Source: a virus. Taken from it: DNA of 64,000 nt. Below are positions 8,932-53,504 of this stretch, piece by piece. The stretch is taken from IMG/VR virus record IMGVR_UViG_3300009506_000014, positions 13,156 through 77,155 of that record; one strand, given 5' to 3'. Every line of letters starts with the position of its first letter. The first letter of the stretch is position 1. The position numbers and the translations under genes are program-made. Under the pieces are notes generated by a model. That model ran no database searches. It had not been told where the DNA came from and worked only from the letters and a program-made list of their open reading frames with translations.

Positions 8932-9210
8932 TTACTGCTCCTTACTTTCTTCCCATTTTTCCCATTCATCTTCAAAGTCACTTTTTCTTTTTTCATACTT
9001 CTTTTTTTGTTGTCTTTCTTTTTTGAGAATGACTTCATATTTCTTTTGTGCCTCTTCAATAGAGTCACAACCAAATTTCTCCTTCAAGGTAGTTTCAACT
9101 TGTGACATAGCTGCTTCGGCTTTGTCGGCAATGCGTGTCATCTTCTGAGCTTTCTTTTTTAGCTCTGCAAACTCTTCTATGTCTCTATTTCTCTTCTTTG
9201 TTTTTGTCAT
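8932..9210 (-). CDS. small coiled-coil protein
   Basis: 92-aa charged helical ORF in the operon. Confidence 0.6.
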   Translation of the reverse strand: MTKTKKRNRDIEEFAELKKKAQKMTRIADKAEAAMSQVETTLKEKFGCDSIEEAQKKYEVILKKERQQKKKYEKRKSDFEDEWEKWEESKEQ

Positions 9211-9352
9211 TGTCTATGCTCTCTTTGAATCCTTTTCTGAATTCCTTTATCGTTTTGGTTGTCCCACTTATTACTTTCGGAAGCTGTCTCCCAAAGACCA
9301 AAATACCGATTAAGCAAATCACTGCTATTTCAGCAAAACCAAAATTAAACAT
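9185..9352 (-). CDS. tatA: TatA/TatE-like twin-arginine translocase subunit (55 aa, not in the ORF track)
   Basis: MFNFGFAEIAVICLIGILVFGRQLPKVISGTTKTIKEFRKGFKESIDNDKNKEEK: polar E8, TM helix, FG hinge, LP, amphipathic helix with EFRKG; AAGGA RBS. Confidence 0.75.
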   Translation of the reverse strand: MFNFGFAEIAVICLIGILVFGRQLPKVISGTTKTIKEFRKGFKESIDNDKNKEEK

Positions 9353-10319
9353 TGTCACGTTCCTTTTCTGCTGCTTTGAATAAAAGCTCTCTTGTCCTTT
9401 TGTTTACTTTTACGTTTTTCTTTCTCAGATAATTTTTAAGAATCAATTCAAAGTCAATGTCCTGACCTTCCATACTTTTTAATTCTTTGCTTAGCTCTGA
9501 AATGTCAATCTCAGGATTCTCTTCAAGTGCCTTTGCTGTTTTCGTTTCAAGATAGACATCGTTCTTTATGGGTATCCTGATAACTGTCACTTCTCCGTCC
9601 GGGTGAAGTAATCCCACTTGTGGTCTGTAGTCTAAATCGGTTGTTCTTCTTCTCATCAATGTCCCACAATTGAACACAGTCGTGTCTCCAATCTTGGTAA
9701 GAAAGCCCTTGTGATTGTCTCCAAACACCATGACATCATAACCAAAGAGCTTATTGTCAATCATATTCTTTTTTGCTATGTAGTTTATGTTTGTTTTCCT
9801 TGCTGCTGTTTTGTATCTGTGTTTACCATGCCAGATGAATTGGTGACATAAAGCAATATTTGCTGGCCCAACCGTTGTCTCTTTTTTTGGTGGTTTTATT
9901 TTTTCACCATAAGCAAAGGAGTATAAATTAAAATGTTTAAGCAGTTGTGTATCTACTACACATTCCAAATCTTTGATAGTGTCACTCAAGACAAGTGAAT
10001 AGTATGCACTCTTTTCCATTTCATCAGGGTTATGATTTGGTGTATCATGCTGTCCCGGTATGCAATACATATCAACTGGCAGATATGTCATTGCAAAGTT
10101 TATTAGCTCCGGGCAGCAATTCCAGTAGTTAAGTATGTCACCAGCAGCCAGTATAGGGCATTTGAAAAATCTTCTTGTCTCTTGCAGCCAGTAAAGAACC
10201 TGTCTCATTGCATTATACCAATCTGGCTCTTTACTTCTCAATACAGGTGGATTATGTGACAGGTGTATATCGGCACACAGTATTGCATCTACTTTTTTAT
10301 TGACATGTGTTCTTTTCAT
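9345..10319 (-). CDS. SbcD/Mre11-like metallophosphoesterase nuclease
   Basis: ADIH, AGDI, PGQHD, FGDNH motifs. Confidence 0.9.
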   Translation of the reverse strand: MKRTHVNKKVDAILCADIHLSHNPPVLRSKEPDWYNAMRQVLYWLQETRRFFKCPILAAGDILNYWNCCPELINFAMTYLPVDMYCIPGQHDTPNHNPDEMEKSAYYSLVLSDTIKDLECVVDTQLLKHFNLYSFAYGEKIKPPKKETTVGPANIALCHQFIWHGKHRYKTAARKTNINYIAKKNMIDNKLFGYDVMVFGDNHKGFLTKIGDTTVFNCGTLMRRRTTDLDYRPQVGLLHPDGEVTVIRIPIKNDVYLETKTAKALEENPEIDISELSKELKSMEGQDIDFELILKNYLRKKNVKVNKRTRELLFKAAEKERDNV

Positions 10320-11337
10320 TTTGTCTTTTTCCGCATAAGGGACATTTCTTGCCTATTGCTTTTCTCAATTGCTTCTCAATCCTCTCGGCTCTTTGTCTGT
10401 GCTTGGTTATTTTCCATAAATATTCCCGGTGTAACTTAATGAGTCTTTCAAGCTCTGTTCTTTTGTTCCTCAGCCTATCATACGTGACAAAGTCTTTCTC
10501 AATATCTGAAATGTCCGGGGGTTTATTATTTATGATTCTCCTGAGTCCCTCGGACTTTTTTATGAGATTTTCAAGCTCTTGCCGGGATTCCCTCAAATCA
10601 AGCCACATCTGCCCACTGAGTACCGCCAAACGAGCTATTTCCCGGCCCGTACAGGCCCGAACGCTGAGCTTTTGGTATGATATAGCCTTATTTATAGTCT
10701 CTTTGATTCTACGGCATTTTAAGGCCGTTCTCTGAAAACGCTTTTCAAGTGTTTCAAGTGTTGACAATTTAACATCAAACTCGTGAACAAACTGTCCGAG
10801 TTCCAATTGCTCTGTAAAATCTTGAATATCTTTTTCTACCTCAGCTTTTTTGTCACGTTCCTTTCTGAGCCATGTATCAAGGTTGCTGAGTGTGTTGTCC
10901 ATGACTTCAAGATTAATAAGCTTGTTTAACTCCCGGCTTGCCATCCCCGGCGTTTTGCAAAACCAAAAAGGATTGTCATGTTGAAACTGGAAGTTTATGT
11001 CATCTACGTTGAAGAGTTTCTTTATCTTGTCCGGGACTTTCTCTTTCTTGAAAGCCTTATAGGGTTTCCCCTTATCAAGTATATAGATGTTTTTGCTCTC
11101 ACCCTTTTTCCGCATGACAGAATGACCATCTAAGAACAAACGCATCTGAGCCAGCTTCGATTTGTTATGAACAAATTCTTCAAGTGTCACAGTTGGATTT
11201 GTCATCAACCAATAGAGTGCCCAAATAAAAGTGCTTTTACCTTTGTCGGTAGAACCTACAATAGTAGTCACCCTATCAAAATCCACATCAAGGCTTTTGA
11301 ATTTTAGAATACCTCTGATTTGTGCTTTTGTCAACAT
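10297..11337 (-). CDS. SbcC/Rad50 N-terminal half ending in the zinc hook
   Basis: Walker A GSTDKGKST, Q-loop, coiled coil, C-terminal CPLCG. Confidence 0.85.
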   Translation of the reverse strand: MLTKAQIRGILKFKSLDVDFDRVTTIVGSTDKGKSTFIWALYWLMTNPTVTLEEFVHNKSKLAQMRLFLDGHSVMRKKGESKNIYILDKGKPYKAFKKEKVPDKIKKLFNVDDINFQFQHDNPFWFCKTPGMASRELNKLINLEVMDNTLSNLDTWLRKERDKKAEVEKDIQDFTEQLELGQFVHEFDVKLSTLETLEKRFQRTALKCRRIKETINKAISYQKLSVRACTGREIARLAVLSGQMWLDLRESRQELENLIKKSEGLRRIINNKPPDISDIEKDFVTYDRLRNKRTELERLIKLHREYLWKITKHRQRAERIEKQLRKAIGKKCPLCGKRQNEKNTCQ

Positions 11338-35394: not shown

Positions 35395-36753
35395 TTATGC
35401 TGCTAATATGCTTGTGTTGTTTGCATCAAACATTACTGTTTTACCAAACGGTAATTTTCTATCTTTCGTTTTGGTCACCCAAAGAACCGGATAGCTCGGT
35501 TCGCGTTCCGGGAATGTTCCGTATGTATCGGTGAAGTATATTAGACAGGCCGGGGTGAGTCCCCTCTTCTGTACTCTTTCAAATACAGGTCTGAAATCTG
35601 TCCCACCATATATTTGTTTTGGATTCGGTTTGATGGGAAGGTCTGAGGTTCTGTATGTCTCTTCGTTTGTTATTTGGTCGTCACAATATATCAGTTGTAC
35701 CGTTGTATCGTAGGCTGATAATATCTGTGACACTTCCTTCAGGAATATGGCAAGTTGAATCTCATCAATACTTCCCGAAGTATCTACTGCAATGACTATC
35801 TCAGGTAACTCATCCGAACAAATACCGGGGACATATAAACCCCTTTGTAAATAGTTTCGGTCAGGGACTTCCCACATATAGTCATTACGTGCATTCGTTT
35901 CTACGAAGTCCCTCAGTATCACATACCAAGGCAAAGGTGGATTTTGAATCTCTTCAACAGCCCGGTCTAAACTTGGGAATGCTTGACCTTTTTTCTGAGC
36001 AGCTTTATAAGCCATCGTGACAGCTTGCTGCCATTGAGCAAGCTGCTCTTTTAGGTCACTCTCATCAAGGATGTCAGCATCTTCAACACCACCACAACCA
36101 CCGGGGTCGGGACAGGTATTGGTATCATCATCACACATGCCGGAATCGGAGTCACCATCTTGCTCGTCTTGGTCTTCATCTTCATCTTCAGGTTCTCCGT
36201 CACCTTCTTCTTGTTCTTCTTCGTCTTCTTGTTCTTCAGGTTCTCCGTTATCCTGACCGCTGCCGGACTGTGACTCGTCTGAGCTTTCCTGCTCTTCTTG
36301 TTCTTGTTCTTTTTGCTCTTGCTCTTCCTGTTGTTTGCGTTCCAAGTCACTGTATATCTCTTCTGCTGTCATTCCTCGGTACATTGAATCATACAAACAA
36401 CCTTCAATGAGCTTGAAGCCAGCGTCACTGAGTATCGGATTAATGGCATAATCGGTAGCCATATTCCAGAGATATGTATCCCGGCCATTCCTTCTCAGGT
36501 GAGTCCCCATAGCACAGTGCATTACTTCATGGGCAAGAACAAACTGCACCCTATCATCATCAAGTGACTCAATGAATCTCGGATTGTATTTAATACGCTT
36601 GCCATTAACGCAAGCTGTTTCGATTGAGACATCTTCGAGAAGTTCTAATCTCATGGCAAGATGTCCCCAAAAGCAATGGTCGAGAACAAGTCCCAACCTT
36701 TGCTGAATAATTCTCAACATCTGTTTGGTTTGTTTTTGTGTTGTAGGTGACAT
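35395..36753 (-). CDS. HExxH metallopeptidase-like plus VWA domain protein (DUF2201-type)
   Basis: LAHEVMH, acidic linker, VDTSGS, GGTDF, YFTD; start MSPTT. Confidence 0.85.
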   Translation of the reverse strand: MSPTTQKQTKQMLRIIQQRLGLVLDHCFWGHLAMRLELLEDVSIETACVNGKRIKYNPRFIESLDDDRVQFVLAHEVMHCAMGTHLRRNGRDTYLWNMATDYAINPILSDAGFKLIEGCLYDSMYRGMTAEEIYSDLERKQQEEQEQKEQEQEEQESSDESQSGSGQDNGEPEEQEDEEEQEEGDGEPEDEDEDQDEQDGDSDSGMCDDDTNTCPDPGGCGGVEDADILDESDLKEQLAQWQQAVTMAYKAAQKKGQAFPSLDRAVEEIQNPPLPWYVILRDFVETNARNDYMWEVPDRNYLQRGLYVPGICSDELPEIVIAVDTSGSIDEIQLAIFLKEVSQILSAYDTTVQLIYCDDQITNEETYRTSDLPIKPNPKQIYGGTDFRPVFERVQKRGLTPACLIYFTDTYGTFPEREPSYPVLWVTKTKDRKLPFGKTVMFDANNTSILAA

Positions 36754-36767
36754 TTTATTTCTCCTTT

Positions 36768-37814
36768 TTATGCAGCACCCTTGAAGAGCATTTTCGGGTG
36801 GTCGGTGACCCACTTGATGTAGGCTTTGGTTTCTCTTACTTTGGGACAGGCAGTGTCAATACCTGCAACGAAAACTGCTGCGAAGTCAATCTCCATACGC
36901 TCAAGGTACTTGAAGATATTCTCGGCGTTTGCTTTGGTTGCTTTGCTGAGCAGAGTTGTGACTATTGCCCACTTTGCATCGGGGCTGCTTGGGACAGGTT
37001 CTTTAGTCGGGTTCTTCAGGATGTTTTCAAGATTTGGCAGTGACCTGTAAACTTTAAGGAAGCCACAGAATGCTACGGCTGCTGCGTGACCTACTGCACC
37101 TTCTATCACTGAGAATTTATCAACGCCAAGTTTCAACCAGTCACTTACTGCTTCCCATTGCCTTGGTGACGGATGGTTTACAATATCCATTGTCCCTTCC
37201 TCAGTGGCAAGTAGTTCAGGCATCCAGTTTATGAAGCTGATAACTTCCATTGCAATGTCATGCTCATAAGCCCATACTACCCAATCCTCTTTTTTAACGG
37301 CAAGCTCAATAATCGTTTTGAACCGTGACTTCACTGGCTCAATCATCCCGGAGACATGAGCAAAGTCTTGTTTGCGATTCGTACAAGCAATGAACACTAC
37401 ATGGGGACTGATGTTTTTGCCGTTGCTTCTTATCAACTGCATAAGTGACGCTTGGGTTGCTGGCGGAGCTTGGCCCATGTCATCAATAAAGTATATGGTA
37501 AGCTTCTTTGCATCCTGAGCAGCTTCGAGATTTCCGAAGGGGACAAATCTGGCTTTGACTTTGCCCTTTTCATTTATGATAGCCCCAAGTCCCTTGTAAT
37601 CAATTGGGCTATCGTGGACGGGTGTGGATATGATAATGTCACATTTCAGGGCTTTGCGTACAGCTAAAACGACATCTGTTTTACCAATGCCGGGCATCCC
37701 GGTAATCAGTACAGACATCTTGTTGGGGACAGCAATCATTAAAAGATTGAAAAGCTCTTGTGGGGACATTGTTGATGTTGTATCGGTACTTGAATTTGAA
37801 TAGTTAGGTGACAT
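36768..37814 (-). CDS. MoxR-like AAA+ ATPase
   Basis: GMPGIGKT, FIDD, PSPRQW; paired with the VWA gene. Confidence 0.85.
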   Translation of the reverse strand: MSPNYSNSSTDTTSTMSPQELFNLLMIAVPNKMSVLITGMPGIGKTDVVLAVRKALKCDIIISTPVHDSPIDYKGLGAIINEKGKVKARFVPFGNLEAAQDAKKLTIYFIDDMGQAPPATQASLMQLIRSNGKNISPHVVFIACTNRKQDFAHVSGMIEPVKSRFKTIIELAVKKEDWVVWAYEHDIAMEVISFINWMPELLATEEGTMDIVNHPSPRQWEAVSDWLKLGVDKFSVIEGAVGHAAAVAFCGFLKVYRSLPNLENILKNPTKEPVPSSPDAKWAIVTTLLSKATKANAENIFKYLERMEIDFAAVFVAGIDTACPKVRETKAYIKWVTDHPKMLFKGAA

Positions 37815-41205: not shown

Positions 41206-41478
41206 ATGTTCAGGACAATTAAAAGATGGCTCGGCATAAAACGGCCTGAGTATTATATCAGGATTGTAACTGCTATGGTCACGATTGAAGTCAAAGCAGA
41301 AAGTAAAAACGACTTGGATTATTTGGTCACGGAGCATCTGGACAAGCTGGTTCTAAAAGCAAAGGAAGTTGCTCAGGATGTCATTGCCGAACAAAAAAGC
41401 GTATGTGCAAAAGAAGTTAATAAAAGTATGATGTTGTCAACACCAATAAGAAGTGGAATTACTACGGGCAGAGCATGA
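41206..41478 (+). CDS. hypothetical protein
   Basis: AAGGAG RBS. Confidence 0.55.
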   Translation: MFRTIKRWLGIKRPEYYIRIVTAMVTIEVKAESKNDLDYLVTEHLDKLVLKAKEVAQDVIAEQKSVCAKEVNKSMMLSTPIRSGITTGRA

Positions 41479-43031
41479 AAGATAAAATGACACGTAGGGA
41501 TTTACTTAAAGCCGGGGCTATGGCTGCCATTGGAGTGGGTGTCTCGTCACTTTCAGAGGAAGATAAGGCTTTAAGCAGTAGTCTTTCCGTCACGGAGATA
41601 GATGCAATCCGAGCCTATACGAGACAGTCCTTTTACGGCTTCGTCCAAGAATTTTGGGATACTGTCATTCCTGAAAGTCCCGTATGGAATTGGCATATTG
41701 AATACTTGTGTAATGAATTGCAGTTTATTGCCGAACGTGTGTTTGAGGGACTTCCAAAGCTTTACGACCTTGTTATTAATATAAGTCCCGGTAGTACCAA
41801 GTCAACGATATGCAGCATCATGTTTCCTGCATGGGTGTGGACAAGAATGGCGTCAGCCCGAATTATTTGTGCATCGTATGCTTACAACCTTGCAATGGAT
41901 TTGTCTCGTAAGAATCGTGACGTTGTATTATCTGAAAGGTATCAAGCGTGTTTTCCTGAATTACAACTACGTGACGACCAATCGGCAAAGAGCTATTTCA
42001 TTAATCGGCTTGGCGGTTCAAGATATTCGGTTGGTGTTGGTGGCTCTGTGACAGGTCTGCACGCTCATTTTCTTTTTGTTGATGACCCATTAGACCCAAA
42101 TGAAGCTGTCTCTGAAGCGGATTTGAAAACAGCAAACCGATGGATGAAAGAGACACTACCCACGAGAAAAGTCAACAAGCTGATTACGCCTACAATTTTA
42201 ATCATGCAGAGACTCCATCAGGATGACCCTGCACAGAATATGATTGACAGGGCTGAAGAGGGTGGAGCTAAAGTAAGGCATATATGTCTCCCCGGCGAAT
42301 TGACAGAGGATGTCAAGCCAAAAGAGTTAAGAGCCAAATATGTTGACGGCTTGATGGATGTAAACAGGTTAGACCGACAAGTGCTGAAAGAAATGTATGT
42401 CGCCTTGGGTGAGTATGGATATGCAGGGCAGATATTACAACGTCCTGTCCCGTTAGGCGGTGGTATGTTCAAGACCGACAAAATCAGAATAGTCGATGCT
42501 CCCCCTTGTAAAGTCATAAGATGTATTCGATATTGGGACAAAGCAGCGTCACACAACAAAGGGGCTTTTACAGTTGGGGCTTTATTATGTGAAGATGAAA
42601 AGGGATGCACAGGGATACTTGACATACAAAGGGGACAATGGGGTTCATACGAAAGAGAGTCACATATCTTGTCTACTGCACAGTTGGACGGGAAAAAAAT
42701 TAGGATATGGATAGAGCAGGAGCCGGGCAGTGGTGGCAAGGACTCGGCAGAATATACAATAGGAAGTCTCCGGGGCTTCAGGGTGTTTGCTGAGAAAGTA
42801 GGGGCTTCAGAGGGCAGTAAGCAATTAAGAGCAGAACCGCTTGCGTCACAGGTCAATGCAGGAAATGTTTGGATGATACGAAGTGACTGGAATAAGGAAT
42901 ATATCAGTGAGTTGTCATTCTTTCCATTCTCAAAATACAAAGACCAAGTTGATGCGTCATCGGGTGCTTTTAACAAGTTGACAAAGAAACGAACAAGAAT
43001 TGGTGGATATGGTAGAAGAAAAGGAACATGA
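41475..43031 (+). CDS. terL: terminase large subunit with twin-arginine-like N-terminus
   Basis: INISPGSTKS, FVDDP, MQRLH, YWDKA, EQEPG, KDQVDA. Confidence 0.93.
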   Translation: MKDKMTRRDLLKAGAMAAIGVGVSSLSEEDKALSSSLSVTEIDAIRAYTRQSFYGFVQEFWDTVIPESPVWNWHIEYLCNELQFIAERVFEGLPKLYDLVINISPGSTKSTICSIMFPAWVWTRMASARIICASYAYNLAMDLSRKNRDVVLSERYQACFPELQLRDDQSAKSYFINRLGGSRYSVGVGGSVTGLHAHFLFVDDPLDPNEAVSEADLKTANRWMKETLPTRKVNKLITPTILIMQRLHQDDPAQNMIDRAEEGGAKVRHICLPGELTEDVKPKELRAKYVDGLMDVNRLDRQVLKEMYVALGEYGYAGQILQRPVPLGGGMFKTDKIRIVDAPPCKVIRCIRYWDKAASHNKGAFTVGALLCEDEKGCTGILDIQRGQWGSYERESHILSTAQLDGKKIRIWIEQEPGSGGKDSAEYTIGSLRGFRVFAEKVGASEGSKQLRAEPLASQVNAGNVWMIRSDWNKEYISELSFFPFSKYKDQVDASSGAFNKLTKKRTRIGGYGRRKGT

Positions 43032-43032
43032 C

Positions 43033-43233
43033 ATGGCAAAAACAATGGAGCAGAAAAATAATGTCCCGGACATTGGGGAAGTGCTTTACACCATTTTGGC
43101 AAATCAAGTGACAATTTTGGATTTATTAAAATGCTTCCATCGTCACGATATAAATGGTATGAGTGAAATAAGTCAGCAGTTAATAAAGATGGACAGAACA
43201 TCAAGAGACTTATTGAAAAGAATGCAATTATGA
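43033..43233 (+). CDS. hypothetical protein
   Basis: probable start MAKT after AAGGA. Confidence 0.45.
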   Translation: MAKTMEQKNNVPDIGEVLYTILANQVTILDLLKCFHRHDINGMSEISQQLIKMDRTSRDLLKRMQL

Positions 43234-43787
43234 AAAATGACAAGATAAAACGAAGAAGTTTTTTGCAAGGTCTTGCAGCCATTGTGACAACTGGGACTTT
43301 GGTAAAAAAGACCGAAGGCAAAGTGACAGAGCAGACGAAGACGAAAGAAATATTGCCGCCACCTTCATTTGCCCCAACTTACAGAGAAAATAAACCAGCG
43401 GAACACACAGAGCTTATGCCACCTATATGTATAAGTAGATGTGAGTTAAATGAGGGAGAGACGAGGTTGACATTCCGGGCTGGGGGACAGGAGTATTATA
43501 TCTATCCTGATAAGATAGAAATGACATATCATTCATATTCAAGACAAGTGACTCCAGATTATTGTGTTGTCAATTCTCCGGGATATATGGGGACAATGAT
43601 AGTAAAAGGTTGGTTTGGTGGTGGTAGTCCCGGTGTGTGTATTGAAGATATGATAGGGAGAAGTGGTGACCTTGTTATTCGCAAGCTGGAAGAAGGTCAC
43701 GAGTTTATTTGTAAAGCTTCGTTGGTTGAAGTTAGGATAGAAATTAGTCGATTAGTCACGGAGTTAATATTTTATATATATCAATAG
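43230..43787 (+). CDS. protein with Tat-type signal peptide
   Basis: KRRSFLQGLAAIVTTG. Confidence 0.65.
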   Translation: MKNDKIKRRSFLQGLAAIVTTGTLVKKTEGKVTEQTKTKEILPPPSFAPTYRENKPAEHTELMPPICISRCELNEGETRLTFRAGGQEYYIYPDKIEMTYHSYSRQVTPDYCVVNSPGYMGTMIVKGWFGGGSPGVCIEDMIGRSGDLVIRKLEEGHEFICKASLVEVRIEISRLVTELIFYIYQ

Positions 43788-43801
43788 GAAAGGACATTAG
43801 T

Positions 43802-44101
43802 ATGGAAAAGAAAATTGAACGGCGTGGATTTCTAAAGGGACTTACCGGGGTGATAGCTGGAATTACAGTCGGTGCAAAAGCCGCATCTGTCACACCAACA
43901 AAAGAGCCTACAATTAGAAGTCCCGAACCAGCAGAAGAGTTTGATGATGACATTTGGAATAAACTTGCAGAAGAGTTTGATGATGACAGTTGGATTAAAC
44001 TTGATGAAGCAATTATTAAACATGGACGTGAACTGCTACAAAGAGTGATGGCCGGAAAGAGTCACAGTCGTTTCAAATCAAGAATACCAAAAAGGAGATA
44101 A
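43802..44101 (+). CDS. protein with Tat-type signal peptide and 12-aa duplication
   Basis: ERRGFLKGLTGVIAGITVGAKA; AEEFDDDxWxKL twice. Confidence 0.65.
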   Translation: MEKKIERRGFLKGLTGVIAGITVGAKAASVTPTKEPTIRSPEPAEEFDDDIWNKLAEEFDDDSWIKLDEAIIKHGRELLQRVMAGKSHSRFKSRIPKRR

Positions 44102-44105
44102 ATAT

Positions 44106-44639
44106 ATGCTGACAAGAAGAAGTTTATTTAGAAGAGCCGGGGAAGCCATAGCCTATGTGACAGGCTGGTTATATATGACAAGCGGAGCAAAGCCGAAAAA
44201 GGAAAAAGCAGCAGAGCTTCCACAGTACAAAAGTTTTATCAGTAACAAAATTTATGTCCCACCATTTGAAGTGACTGATAAAGATATTGTGGATTGTTTG
44301 GTCTATGCCAATTATCAGTTTAATCAATGGCTTAATTGTGGATTTGACAAACGTCATGAAATGCCTGTTCTTTATATGTCACAAAGATTCTATGACAATA
44401 TGTGCCTATTGTACATTTCCAGATGGCCCAACCGGGCTATTTCAGATAGTCACGTTATGGAATGCAGACATGAAGGTAATTTATGGGGACTTCAACAGGT
44501 TTTCAATTTGGATATAGAGATTGTCCCGGATGGTGTGATTGATTGGGGTGATGGCCCGGAATATAGTTGTTTCCTTACTTGTATTTCCTGTGAAGGGACA
44601 GCACAATCAAGAAATATGAAATATAAGAAAATAGATTAG
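44106..44639 (+). CDS. protein with Tat-like N-terminus
   Basis: TRRSLFRRAGEAIAYV. Confidence 0.55.
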   Translation: MLTRRSLFRRAGEAIAYVTGWLYMTSGAKPKKEKAAELPQYKSFISNKIYVPPFEVTDKDIVDCLVYANYQFNQWLNCGFDKRHEMPVLYMSQRFYDNMCLLYISRWPNRAISDSHVMECRHEGNLWGLQQVFNLDIEIVPDGVIDWGDGPEYSCFLTCISCEGTAQSRNMKYKKID

Positions 44640-52064: not shown

Positions 52065-52706
52065 GTGTTGTGGATGCCAGAAACAACCTGTTGGAAAGAT
52101 GAAGATGCTTTCATTTACGGCGGCGGGCCGTCACTGAAGGGATTTGATTATCAATGTCTTGTAAACGAATATGTTATAGGTTGTAATGATGCTTATAAGT
52201 TTGGGACATTGATTTGTGATATATGTGTCTTTGGTGACTATCAGTGGTTTGAATTGCATTGCAAAGGGCTTGAAAGGTATGTCAATCAGGGCGGTTTGGT
52301 AGTATCAAACTGTCCCCAATTGTGCAATACACATCTGCCTTGGCTTAAGAGAATGGAGAGACAGGCAGTTGGTCTTCACAAAAATGCTCTTGGCTGGAAT
52401 TCAAATACAGGCTCTTCAGCTTTGAACCTTGCTTTATTGCTCGGAGCTAAAAGAGTATTTTTGCTTGGCTTTGATTTAGGTAAGTCACCGGATGGTGAAA
52501 GTAACTGGCATCCAAATACACTTGATGACCCCGGAGAGGACATCTTTAGAAGATGGCAGGAAGGCTTTAGAGTTTGTGGGAAGCATTGGAAAAGCAAGTT
52601 TGGTGACAGAGAAATATACAATGTCACCAATGGAAGCAGATTAGAGGTTTTCCCGAAGCTTGATTTTGATAAATTTTGGAAAGAAAGGAGTCACAATGGA
52701 AAGTAG
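52065..52706 (+). CDS. Maf/MptE-like (DUF115-type) putative glycosyltransferase
   Basis: IYGGGPSL, IGCN, NTG..ALNLA..LGAKRVFLLGFD. Confidence 0.65.
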   Translation: MLWMPETTCWKDEDAFIYGGGPSLKGFDYQCLVNEYVIGCNDAYKFGTLICDICVFGDYQWFELHCKGLERYVNQGGLVVSNCPQLCNTHLPWLKRMERQAVGLHKNALGWNSNTGSSALNLALLLGAKRVFLLGFDLGKSPDGESNWHPNTLDDPGEDIFRRWQEGFRVCGKHWKSKFGDREIYNVTNGSRLEVFPKLDFDKFWKERSHNGK

Positions 52707-52992
52707 CCCCGAAGTTCTTGATATTCTGTCAAAGTTGGGAATACAAGCGAGTGGTGGTGTGTTGTCACTTATTGCTTTAATTCCCTTTATTGTGGCAAGG
52801 CTGAAAGATTTCCCCATACTTCGGTCACTACAGGATAAAGGATATCCTGCTTATGAAGTGACAGCCGTTGGTTTGGGAATTCTGAGTGCATTTACTTTTG
52901 GTGTTGCTAATCCTGTGGTCACTGGATTAGTTTTGGGCCTTGCTGGAATTGGTGGCCGACAAATAGCAAAGAAGAAAGGAACAGTACAATGA
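52696..52992 (+). CDS. small multi-TM protein (holin-like)
   Basis: 2-3 hydrophobic segments, basic C-terminus. Confidence 0.5.
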   Translation: MESSPEVLDILSKLGIQASGGVLSLIALIPFIVARLKDFPILRSLQDKGYPAYEVTAVGLGILSAFTFGVANPVVTGLVLGLAGIGGRQIAKKKGTVQ

Positions 52993-53504
52993 AAGGGTTA
53001 GTTTTGTTAATTTTGATGTCTTTGATGTCATTGACTTGTGCTTTTCTGGTTGGCTGTAGTCAATTGGAAAATCCACAGGTTTTGGCATCAGTCCTGACCG
53101 GGCCGGACATAGAAGAAAATCCAGACAATGACACGGCCATAAATGAAACTGTAGGACGCGTGGGTATAAAGGCAGGTCATTTGAAATTTGGCTATCAAAG
53201 TCACTACTTTGAAGGTCACGGCCCGGATTCCGCACATGGTCTATTTATAGCACAGGATTTAGTTGCTGACCCGAACGGTGCAGGTTTACTTGGCAAGCCT
53301 TATATTGGTGGCTTTGGGACTTTCAATAATGACGAGATTATGTATGGCCCTTATATCGGGACAGAATATATCATTCAAGGAATAAAATTTAATACTGAAT
53401 TTCAAATAAGGAGTTTTGACCGGGCATTGGAAGTGCTTGACCGGGAAGATGTTGACAAATATCGAGTTGTCGCCGGGCCTGTCTTTTACTTCCCTCTTGA
53501 ATGA
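52989..53504 (+). CDS. lipoprotein, possibly beta-barrel
   Basis: signal peptide with LVGC lipobox; amphipathic strands; aromatic-rich C-terminus. Confidence 0.55.
   Translation: MKGLVLLILMSLMSLTCAFLVGCSQLENPQVLASVLTGPDIEENPDNDTAINETVGRVGIKAGHLKFGYQSHYFEGHGPDSAHGLFIAQDLVADPNGAGLLGKPYIGGFGTFNNDEIMYGPYIGTEYIIQGIKFNTEFQIRSFDRALEVLDREDVDKYRVVAGPVFYFPLE

Follow-up and report, generated by a model that had tools for sequence, protein, structure and literature searches.

The open reading frame (ORF) at positions 9185 to 9352 is confirmed, at the level of its sequence, as a genuine homologue of the Tat translocase subunit TatA, encoded by a phage that carries no TatC. Positions refer to the window, the whole stretch of 64,000 nucleotides analysed; it belongs to a complete IMG/VR phage record of 77,155 bp with direct terminal repeats, rated 100% complete. 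Among the related phages, this genome is the sole one with tatA and likewise the sole one in which Tat-type leaders form a cluster; the two coincide in just one genome, which does not prove a functional link. We give an even chance to the reading that the phage TatA joins the translocon of the host TatC and raises export capacity for the twin-arginine proteins of the phage.

The start of the tatA-like ORF is at 9352-9350 (ATG) and its stop codon at 9187-9185 on the minus strand; an alternative GTG start at 9358 would make the protein merely two amino acids longer. The gene and its expression signal are the following:

Positions 9185 to 9352, minus strand: tatA-like gene, 55 aa, assigned by PF02416, TIGR01411, column counts and an AF2 model.
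Positions 9361 to 9365, minus strand: Shine-Dalgarno-like AAGGA, read from the sequence, 8 nt 5' of the tatA ATG.

The original prediction of a 55-aa ORF with a ribosome binding site, overlapping both neighbours, is borne out. The ATG is located inside the final codons and the stop codon of the upstream SbcD-like gene (ATGTTTAA, overlap 9345-9352), which suggests translational coupling, and the 3' end of tatA shares 26 nt (9185-9210) with the start of a 92-aa coiled-coil gene. A consensus scan around the gene for a promoter or terminator of its own stayed at chance level, and from the gene overlaps alone we infer that tatA is expressed within the surrounding operon. An 82-aa ORF on the plus strand covers the same DNA (9135-9383); it was set aside since the family match and the co-orientation with all neighbours favour the minus strand. 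The gene had also been described as unannotated, which is doubtful because a public protein collection already holds the protein with PF02416 precomputed.

The Pfam search that had been proposed as a check (MttA_Hcf106, PF02416, TatA_B_E) gave 31.5 bits against a cut-off of 21 (E 1e-7), with the match spanning 51 of the 53 profile positions (2-52 of 53). When the phage genome was searched in six frames, the same profile found a single TatA in the whole genome (30.1 bits, E 2.6e-8). The best NCBIfam model was tatAE (TIGR01411) with 37.3 bits, compared to 27.3 bits for tatB (TIGR01410); since the trusted cut-off of TIGR01411 is 53.9, the protein is TatA/E-like and not a certified member of the subfamily. 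A phmmer search against 1.84 billion representative proteins yielded 141 matches at E<=1e-3, of which 30 were aligned and 12 read as sequences, all of them TatA-like, and the diagnostic columns were checked across all 141. Sequence matches to solved structures were led by the chloroplast TatA (7b7o, E 3.3e-4) and B. subtilis TatAd (2l16, E 5e-3) and also included TatB/TatA chains. PHROGs has no family for the phage TatA, and a word-index homologue search with it retrieved only the protein itself.

The protein consists of an N-out tail (M1-A7), the polar residue E8, a hydrophobic helix (I9-F20, 12 residues), the hinge G21, an amphipathic helix from R22 to about K43 and an acidic/basic tail. The TatA layout named in the original prediction is thus all there: G5, E8, the I9-F20 helix, the F20-G21 hinge, L24-P25 and an amphipathic helix that ends with E37-F38-R39-K40-G41. 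These residues are those that the family keeps, as E8 is shared by 138 of the 141 representatives, F20 by 140, G21 by 141, P25 by 139, and F38 and G41 by 132 each; G5 and L24 are likewise kept. The criterion for TatA, TatB and TatE proteins is an N-terminal helix of about 12 residues with an essential polar residue before it and a conserved Phe at its end (PMC9527704). In active TatA the polar residue is followed by a 12-residue hydrophobic helix, whose unusual shortness is described as the basis of membrane thinning; in plant and two-component TatAC systems this polar residue is usually an acidic one (PMC9527704). Exactly 12 hydrophobic residues separate E8 from G21 in the phage protein.

An AF2 model calculated with the 30-sequence alignment (pLDDT 85.7) has helices at residues 6-20 and 23-54 with a break at the hinge (21-22). 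The second helix is amphipathic, with a moment of 0.54 that is reached by 1.8% of shuffles. The sole match of the model in a Foldseek search against the PDB was the TatA oligomer 2lzs, which was non-significant (E 3.7, TM 0.55-0.60), as expected for a two-helix model of 55 residues. This length accommodates the membrane-spanning helix, the complete amphipathic helix and the acidic stretch, and the TatA tail past these last two elements is reported to be dispensable for activity (PMC9527704).

The phage protein deviates from the family in the centre of its amphipathic helix. The basic start (R22), L24-P25 and F38-R39-K40-G41 are kept, and the central Leu-Gly is replaced by Thr-Thr (Thr31-Thr32), so that both the central Gly column and the hydrophobic column preceding it hold Thr; a Gly is present two positions before the central Gly column, at G30. 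The central Gly column contains Gly in 129, Ala in 9, Thr in 2 and Ser in 1 of the 141 representatives, and the Thr-Thr variant occurs in 2 of 141, being shared by the nearest relative P0002 alone. P0002 is a protein of 60 aa from an 8.2-kb JGI contig that is 59% identical to the phage TatA and has the same Gly-Thr-Thr-Lys-Thr motif.

The original prediction had proposed that the phage boosts, redirects or dominantly poisons host Tat export, and poisoning was kept as a candidate because of this Thr-Thr. The phage TatA might dock on the host TatC through its intact N-terminal half, and the altered amphipathic helix might block productive oligomerisation; host Tat export, for instance of envelope-maintenance amidases, redox enzymes or receptors, would be shut down, or superinfecting phages would be excluded. 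The features for docking on TatC are indeed retained (E8, the 12-residue helix and the F20-G21 hinge), the genome is without TatC, tatA is part of an early/middle operon, and the central Gly that is lost is listed as essential in E. coli TatA (PMC9527704). However, a poisoned translocon would also block the three or four proteins with Tat-type leaders that the phage itself encodes. In addition, the conservation of Thr-Thr in P0002 at 59% identity and the Gly kept at G30 make the protein look like a selected working variant, and 10 other family members have Ala or Ser in the Gly column. We therefore consider a dominant-negative TatA unlikely.

It might also be possible that the protein acts on the membrane independently of Tat. 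The helix and the amphipathic helix would cluster and thin the membrane like single-helix holins, and the role of the protein would be depolarising, holin-like, the timing of lysis or exclusion; its trigger might be the abundant late proteins that bear the leaders. Within Tat, it is TatA that weakens the membrane, and the unrelated single-helix holins TpeE/BhlA, in which an amphipathic helix likewise comes after a short one, are proposed to weaken membranes in the manner of TatA (PMC9527704). There is no sequence relationship to TpeE, which lacks the hinge Gly, the L-P and the F-R-K-G of the phage TatA. None of the 46 proteins scanned with Pfam and/or PHROGs was recognised as an endolysin, and the lysis system is thus known only in part. 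On the other hand, tatA is located in a DNA-repair/replication operon and not in the late region, which has a separate candidate holin (52660-52992) and a lipoprotein (52989-53504), and the residues for docking on TatC, unnecessary for a stand-alone membrane disruptor, are all conserved. A function of this kind seems improbable to us. The candidate holin is a 110-aa protein with two hydrophobic helices and a weak match to phrog_1129 (E 0.006); the 171-aa protein with a lipoprotein-type leader (LVGC) follows it, and the two are possible lysis genes.

The absence of TatC from the window had been noted originally; it is true for the window and extends to the complete 77,155-bp genome, in which PF00902 found no match (as a control, the profile detected TatC in 11 of 14 reference genomes). 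The part of the original interpretation that stands is therefore a phage-borne TatA homologue without TatC (searches with PF02416, TIGR01411 and PF00902, and the AF2 model). The gene is part of a minus-strand block with the following order, starting with the first gene of the operon:

Positions 10297 to 11337, minus strand: N-terminal half of an SbcC-like ATPase (Walker A and coiled coil), with matches to AAA_15/AAA_23, phrog_16465 (exonuclease) and phrog_77 (SbcC-like).
Positions 9345 to 10319, minus strand: SbcD-like metallophosphoesterase, with sub-threshold Pfam matches to Metallophos_2 (23.2 bits, cut-off 27) and Metallophos (18.9 bits, cut-off 21.5).
Positions 9185 to 9352, minus strand: tatA, as above.
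Positions 8932 to 9210, minus strand: 92-aa coiled-coil gene, conserved beside SbcD in relatives.
Positions 8116 to 8697, minus strand: C-terminal half of an SbcC-like ATPase (signature motif and Walker B), with matches to phrog_15167 (ATPase, E 3.9e-26), phrog_77 and SMC_N.

A small ORF lies between the last two genes. Farther upstream, at higher window coordinates, the same block encodes a PDDEXK nuclease, a FEN-type exonuclease and a UvsX-like recombinase. As a separate observation, the split halves of the SbcC-like ATPase flank the SbcD-like and coiled-coil genes (8116-11337), an arrangement kept in L109 and L112. Two further loci of the window are recorded here: a DUF2201 metallopeptidase/VWA-like protein beside an AAA ATPase in the early region (35395-37814), forming a MoxR-VWA-like pair, and an ORF at 6615-7508 that matches phrog_4285, annotated as transposase (E 2.6e-14), and has no Pfam match.

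Related phages were found via the terminase (50-62% identity). They keep the operon of SbcC N-terminal half, SbcD, coiled-coil gene and SbcC C-terminal half: homologues of the SbcD-like protein with 36-39% identity are present in G001 and G003-G005, and a by-eye comparison of translations revealed counterparts of the 92-aa gene in L109 and L112 (82-84 aa). None of the 10 related phage genomes, which are 90-100% complete, contains TatA. In G001 nothing occupies the slot after the SbcD-like gene and the coiled-coil gene is directly next, in G003 it contains two unrelated small genes. Since the relatives retain the operon without tatA, the gene is an accessory gene in a variable slot and not part of the nuclease; a functional link between tatA and SbcCD was rejected for the same reason.

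Such a distribution, with tatA in 1 of 11 related genomes and unrelated small genes taking its slot in relatives, would also fit a captured host gene without function for the phage. Yet the diagnostic residues are all intact, a good ribosome binding site precedes the start codon, which is coupled to the gene upstream, the 59% identical P0002 has the same Gly-Thr-Thr-Lys-Thr motif, and an orphan TatA recurs in other viral records. The GC content of tatA (34.5%) is close to that of the adjoining operon genes (35-40%; window 40.2%) and thus does not suggest that the gene was captured recently from a host of higher GC. A neutral passenger is in our opinion very unlikely.

Candidate cargo for a Tat pathway is encoded in the late region, where four consecutive genes (starting at 41475, 43230, 43802 and 44106) begin with an RR-x-F/L-L motif followed by a weakly hydrophobic stretch:

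Positions 41475 to 43031, plus strand: large terminase (TerL) with a Tat-type leader in its first ~25 residues (TRRDLLK and a Gly/Ala-rich h-region); TIGR01409 20.5-20.9 bits, above the cut-off of 16.7; PF10518 18.1 bits.
Positions 43230 to 43787, plus strand: 185-aa orphan with the leader KRRSFLQGLAAIVTTGTLV; TIGR01409 14.2 bits, below 16.7 (E 0.007 for the genome); PF10518 14.2 bits.
Positions 43802 to 44101, plus strand: 99-aa orphan with the leader ERRGFLKGLTGVIAGITVGAKA followed by A (AxA-type cleavage site); TIGR01409 17.9 bits in six frames, above 16.7; PF10518 15.8 bits.
Positions 44106 to 44639, plus strand: 177-aa orphan with the weaker leader TRRSLFRRAGEAIAYVTGWLY, recognised by eye.

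A six-frame TIGR01409 search of the whole genome gave exactly three matches, all within 41475-44101 and two of them above the curated cut-off of 16.7; in the protein scan the 99-aa protein scored 16.5 bits, slightly under this cut-off. The PF10518 (TAT_signal) scores of TerL and the 185-aa and 99-aa proteins (14-18 bits) are all below the cut-off of 22.7, and the leader of the 177-aa protein matched neither TIGR01409 nor PF10518. No Pfam, PHROG or sequence homologues were found for the leader-bearing orphans, and their Atlas matches were below useful scores.

The same six-frame search over the 10 relatives (~680 kb) found one match in total, a matrixin-type metalloprotease with a Tat leader located just upstream of TerL in G006. 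This indicates that the hosts of the group have a Tat pathway and that phages of the group use it for cargo. At L063:8054-8695 (and L024:1846-2487), a related phage without a TatA of its own encodes a matrixin-type (Peptidase_M10) metalloprotease that bears a twin-arginine leader and lies just upstream of the terminase.

The leader on TerL, encoded at 41475-41555 in the window, is an oddity. TerL is a cytoplasmic motor enzyme, and its export would make no obvious sense. All possible starts of the protein (M1, M5, M16 and V21) are within the leader, thus at least part of the leader is in the protein; M1 overlaps the stop codon of the upstream ORF (ATGA). Starts at M16 or V21 would lose the RR pair, which makes two isoforms conceivable. 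A comparable RR leader recurs in at least two other TerL homologues: it was found in L032 alone (L032:854-940; 52% identical) among 81 TerL relatives in viral contigs, and in P0205 alone (56% identical) among the best 120 TerL homologues in the protein collection. P0205 starts with NRRELLKAGAVAGLGG, much like TRRDLLKAGAMAAIG of the phage TerL, and the N-terminus of the TerL P0147 (66% identical; 10.4-kb JGI contig) is extended by 57 aa that contain no RR. Another TerL homologue, P0146, is 83% identical and comes from a JGI contig of 18.4 kb. The phage might run its own Tat targeting, in which TatA and the leaders on TerL and the three neighbouring late proteins would bring TerL, or the fraction of it whose translation begins at the first start codon, to TatC in the membrane. 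This could tether packaging, clear surplus nuclease or hide the terminase from cytoplasmic sensors; we regard it as quite unlikely.

The phage is not the only virus with an orphan TatA. At least three further IMG/VR viral records (41-95 kb) lack TatC and encode a TatA that exceeds the Pfam cut-off (50-52 bits); they were retrieved by means of a degenerate DNA pattern, and since this detects canonical TatAs alone, three is a lower bound:

L114, positions 7466 to 7636 of a 75-kb record: TatA of about 50 aa.
L115, positions 2814 to 3089 of a 95-kb record: TatA of up to 91 aa.
L116, positions about 440 to 600 of a 41-kb record: TatA of about 45 aa.

The neighbours of TatA in L114 and L115 look phage-like. 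Among cultured phages, no TatA came up by tblastn in 50,697 deposited genomes, and a blastn search with the region gave no match. Scans of viral, metagenome and genome contigs retrieved only cellular TatAs more distant than P0002.

The cellular TatAs closest to the phage protein belong to Planctomycetota, a Bacillota MAG and Cloacimonadota, at just 42-51% identity. The expectation that the best matches might indicate the host is not supported. Relatives of TerL were found in MAGs of Spirochaetota, Fibrobacteria, Bacteroidota and others, and the phage sequence contains no tRNAs; neither line pointed to a host.

Among the functions originally proposed, boosting or redirecting host Tat export is favoured, because in this genome, unlike in its 10 relatives, Tat-type leaders form a cluster. 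Each translocation event requires many copies of TatA, which inserts into membranes spontaneously, and the Tat translocon saturates easily. The many copies and the spontaneous insertion, together with a tail that TatA can do without, make it plausible that a small TatA could raise export capacity. The phage would have acquired a minimal TatA/E-type gene as an accessory, placed in a variable slot within the early/middle DNA-repair operon. Once the phage has infected a cell, the protein would insert itself into the cytoplasmic membrane of the host, N-out and C-in like TatA, and E8 would dock it on the TatC (or TatBC) receptor of the host, which is assumed to have TatC. This would enlarge the pool of TatA, the subunit required in large numbers, before the late leader proteins are expressed. 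Tat capacity would be raised or secured for the late proteins encoded at 41475-44639; without it, these proteins would be in competition with host substrates for an easily saturated translocon. Their export would presumably benefit the phage.

Several findings argue against such a booster. The tatA gene and the leader cluster are 32 kb apart, on different strands and without operon linkage, and the link of tatA to the cargo is a co-occurrence in a single genome. One of the candidate cargo proteins is TerL, which must act in the cytoplasm, and the relative with one Tat-leader cargo (G006) does without a TatA of its own. Thr-Thr takes the place of a hydrophobic residue and of the Gly reported as essential in E. 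coli TatA (PMC9527704), and the TIGR01411 score is below the trusted cut-off. Finally, the three other viral records with TatA (L114, L115 and L116), which are fragments, have no match to TIGR01409.

The supply of a TatA protein from outside a tatC locus has cellular precedents. E. coli TatE and B. subtilis TatAc are small TatA-family proteins that are encoded away from any tatC and join a TatC-containing translocon encoded elsewhere. The phage TatA shares with them the helix-hinge-helix layout, the F-G hinge and the L-P, F-K/R and G positions; it differs in being encoded by a virus, so that the partner TatC is in another genome, in its length of 55 aa, in Thr-Thr for Leu-Gly and in scoring below the tatAE trusted cut-off. 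The TatAs of TatAC systems, B. subtilis TatAd (2l16) and the chloroplast TatA/Tha4 (7b7o), are the best solved-structure matches and also have an acidic residue before the helix; their genes accompany or adjoin tatC or belong to a cellular genome, whereas the phage has no TatC. In the B. subtilis phoD-tatAd-tatCd locus the translocase is encoded with its dedicated cargo. Similarly, the phage combines a Tat component and candidate Tat cargo in one genetic unit, which suggests that supply may be matched to demand; unlike phoD-tatAd-tatCd, however, it supplies TatA alone, its candidate cargo genes are 32 kb off on the other strand and one of them encodes a terminase. No description of a phage-encoded TatA was found in a full-text literature search or by terms in a 2026 Tat review. 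New compared to known TatAs are the viral location, the lack of TatC, the very small size and the changed centre of the amphipathic helix.

A virus that brings only TatA together with twin-arginine proteins of its own would be a natural experiment on the capacity limits of Tat, and its TatA would test how freely TatA proteins mix with a foreign TatC. The exchange of the conserved Leu-Gly for Thr-Thr provides a natural variant for probing the role of the amphipathic helix. If functional, a Tat signal on the large terminase, recurring in other phages, would come as a surprise to phage biologists.
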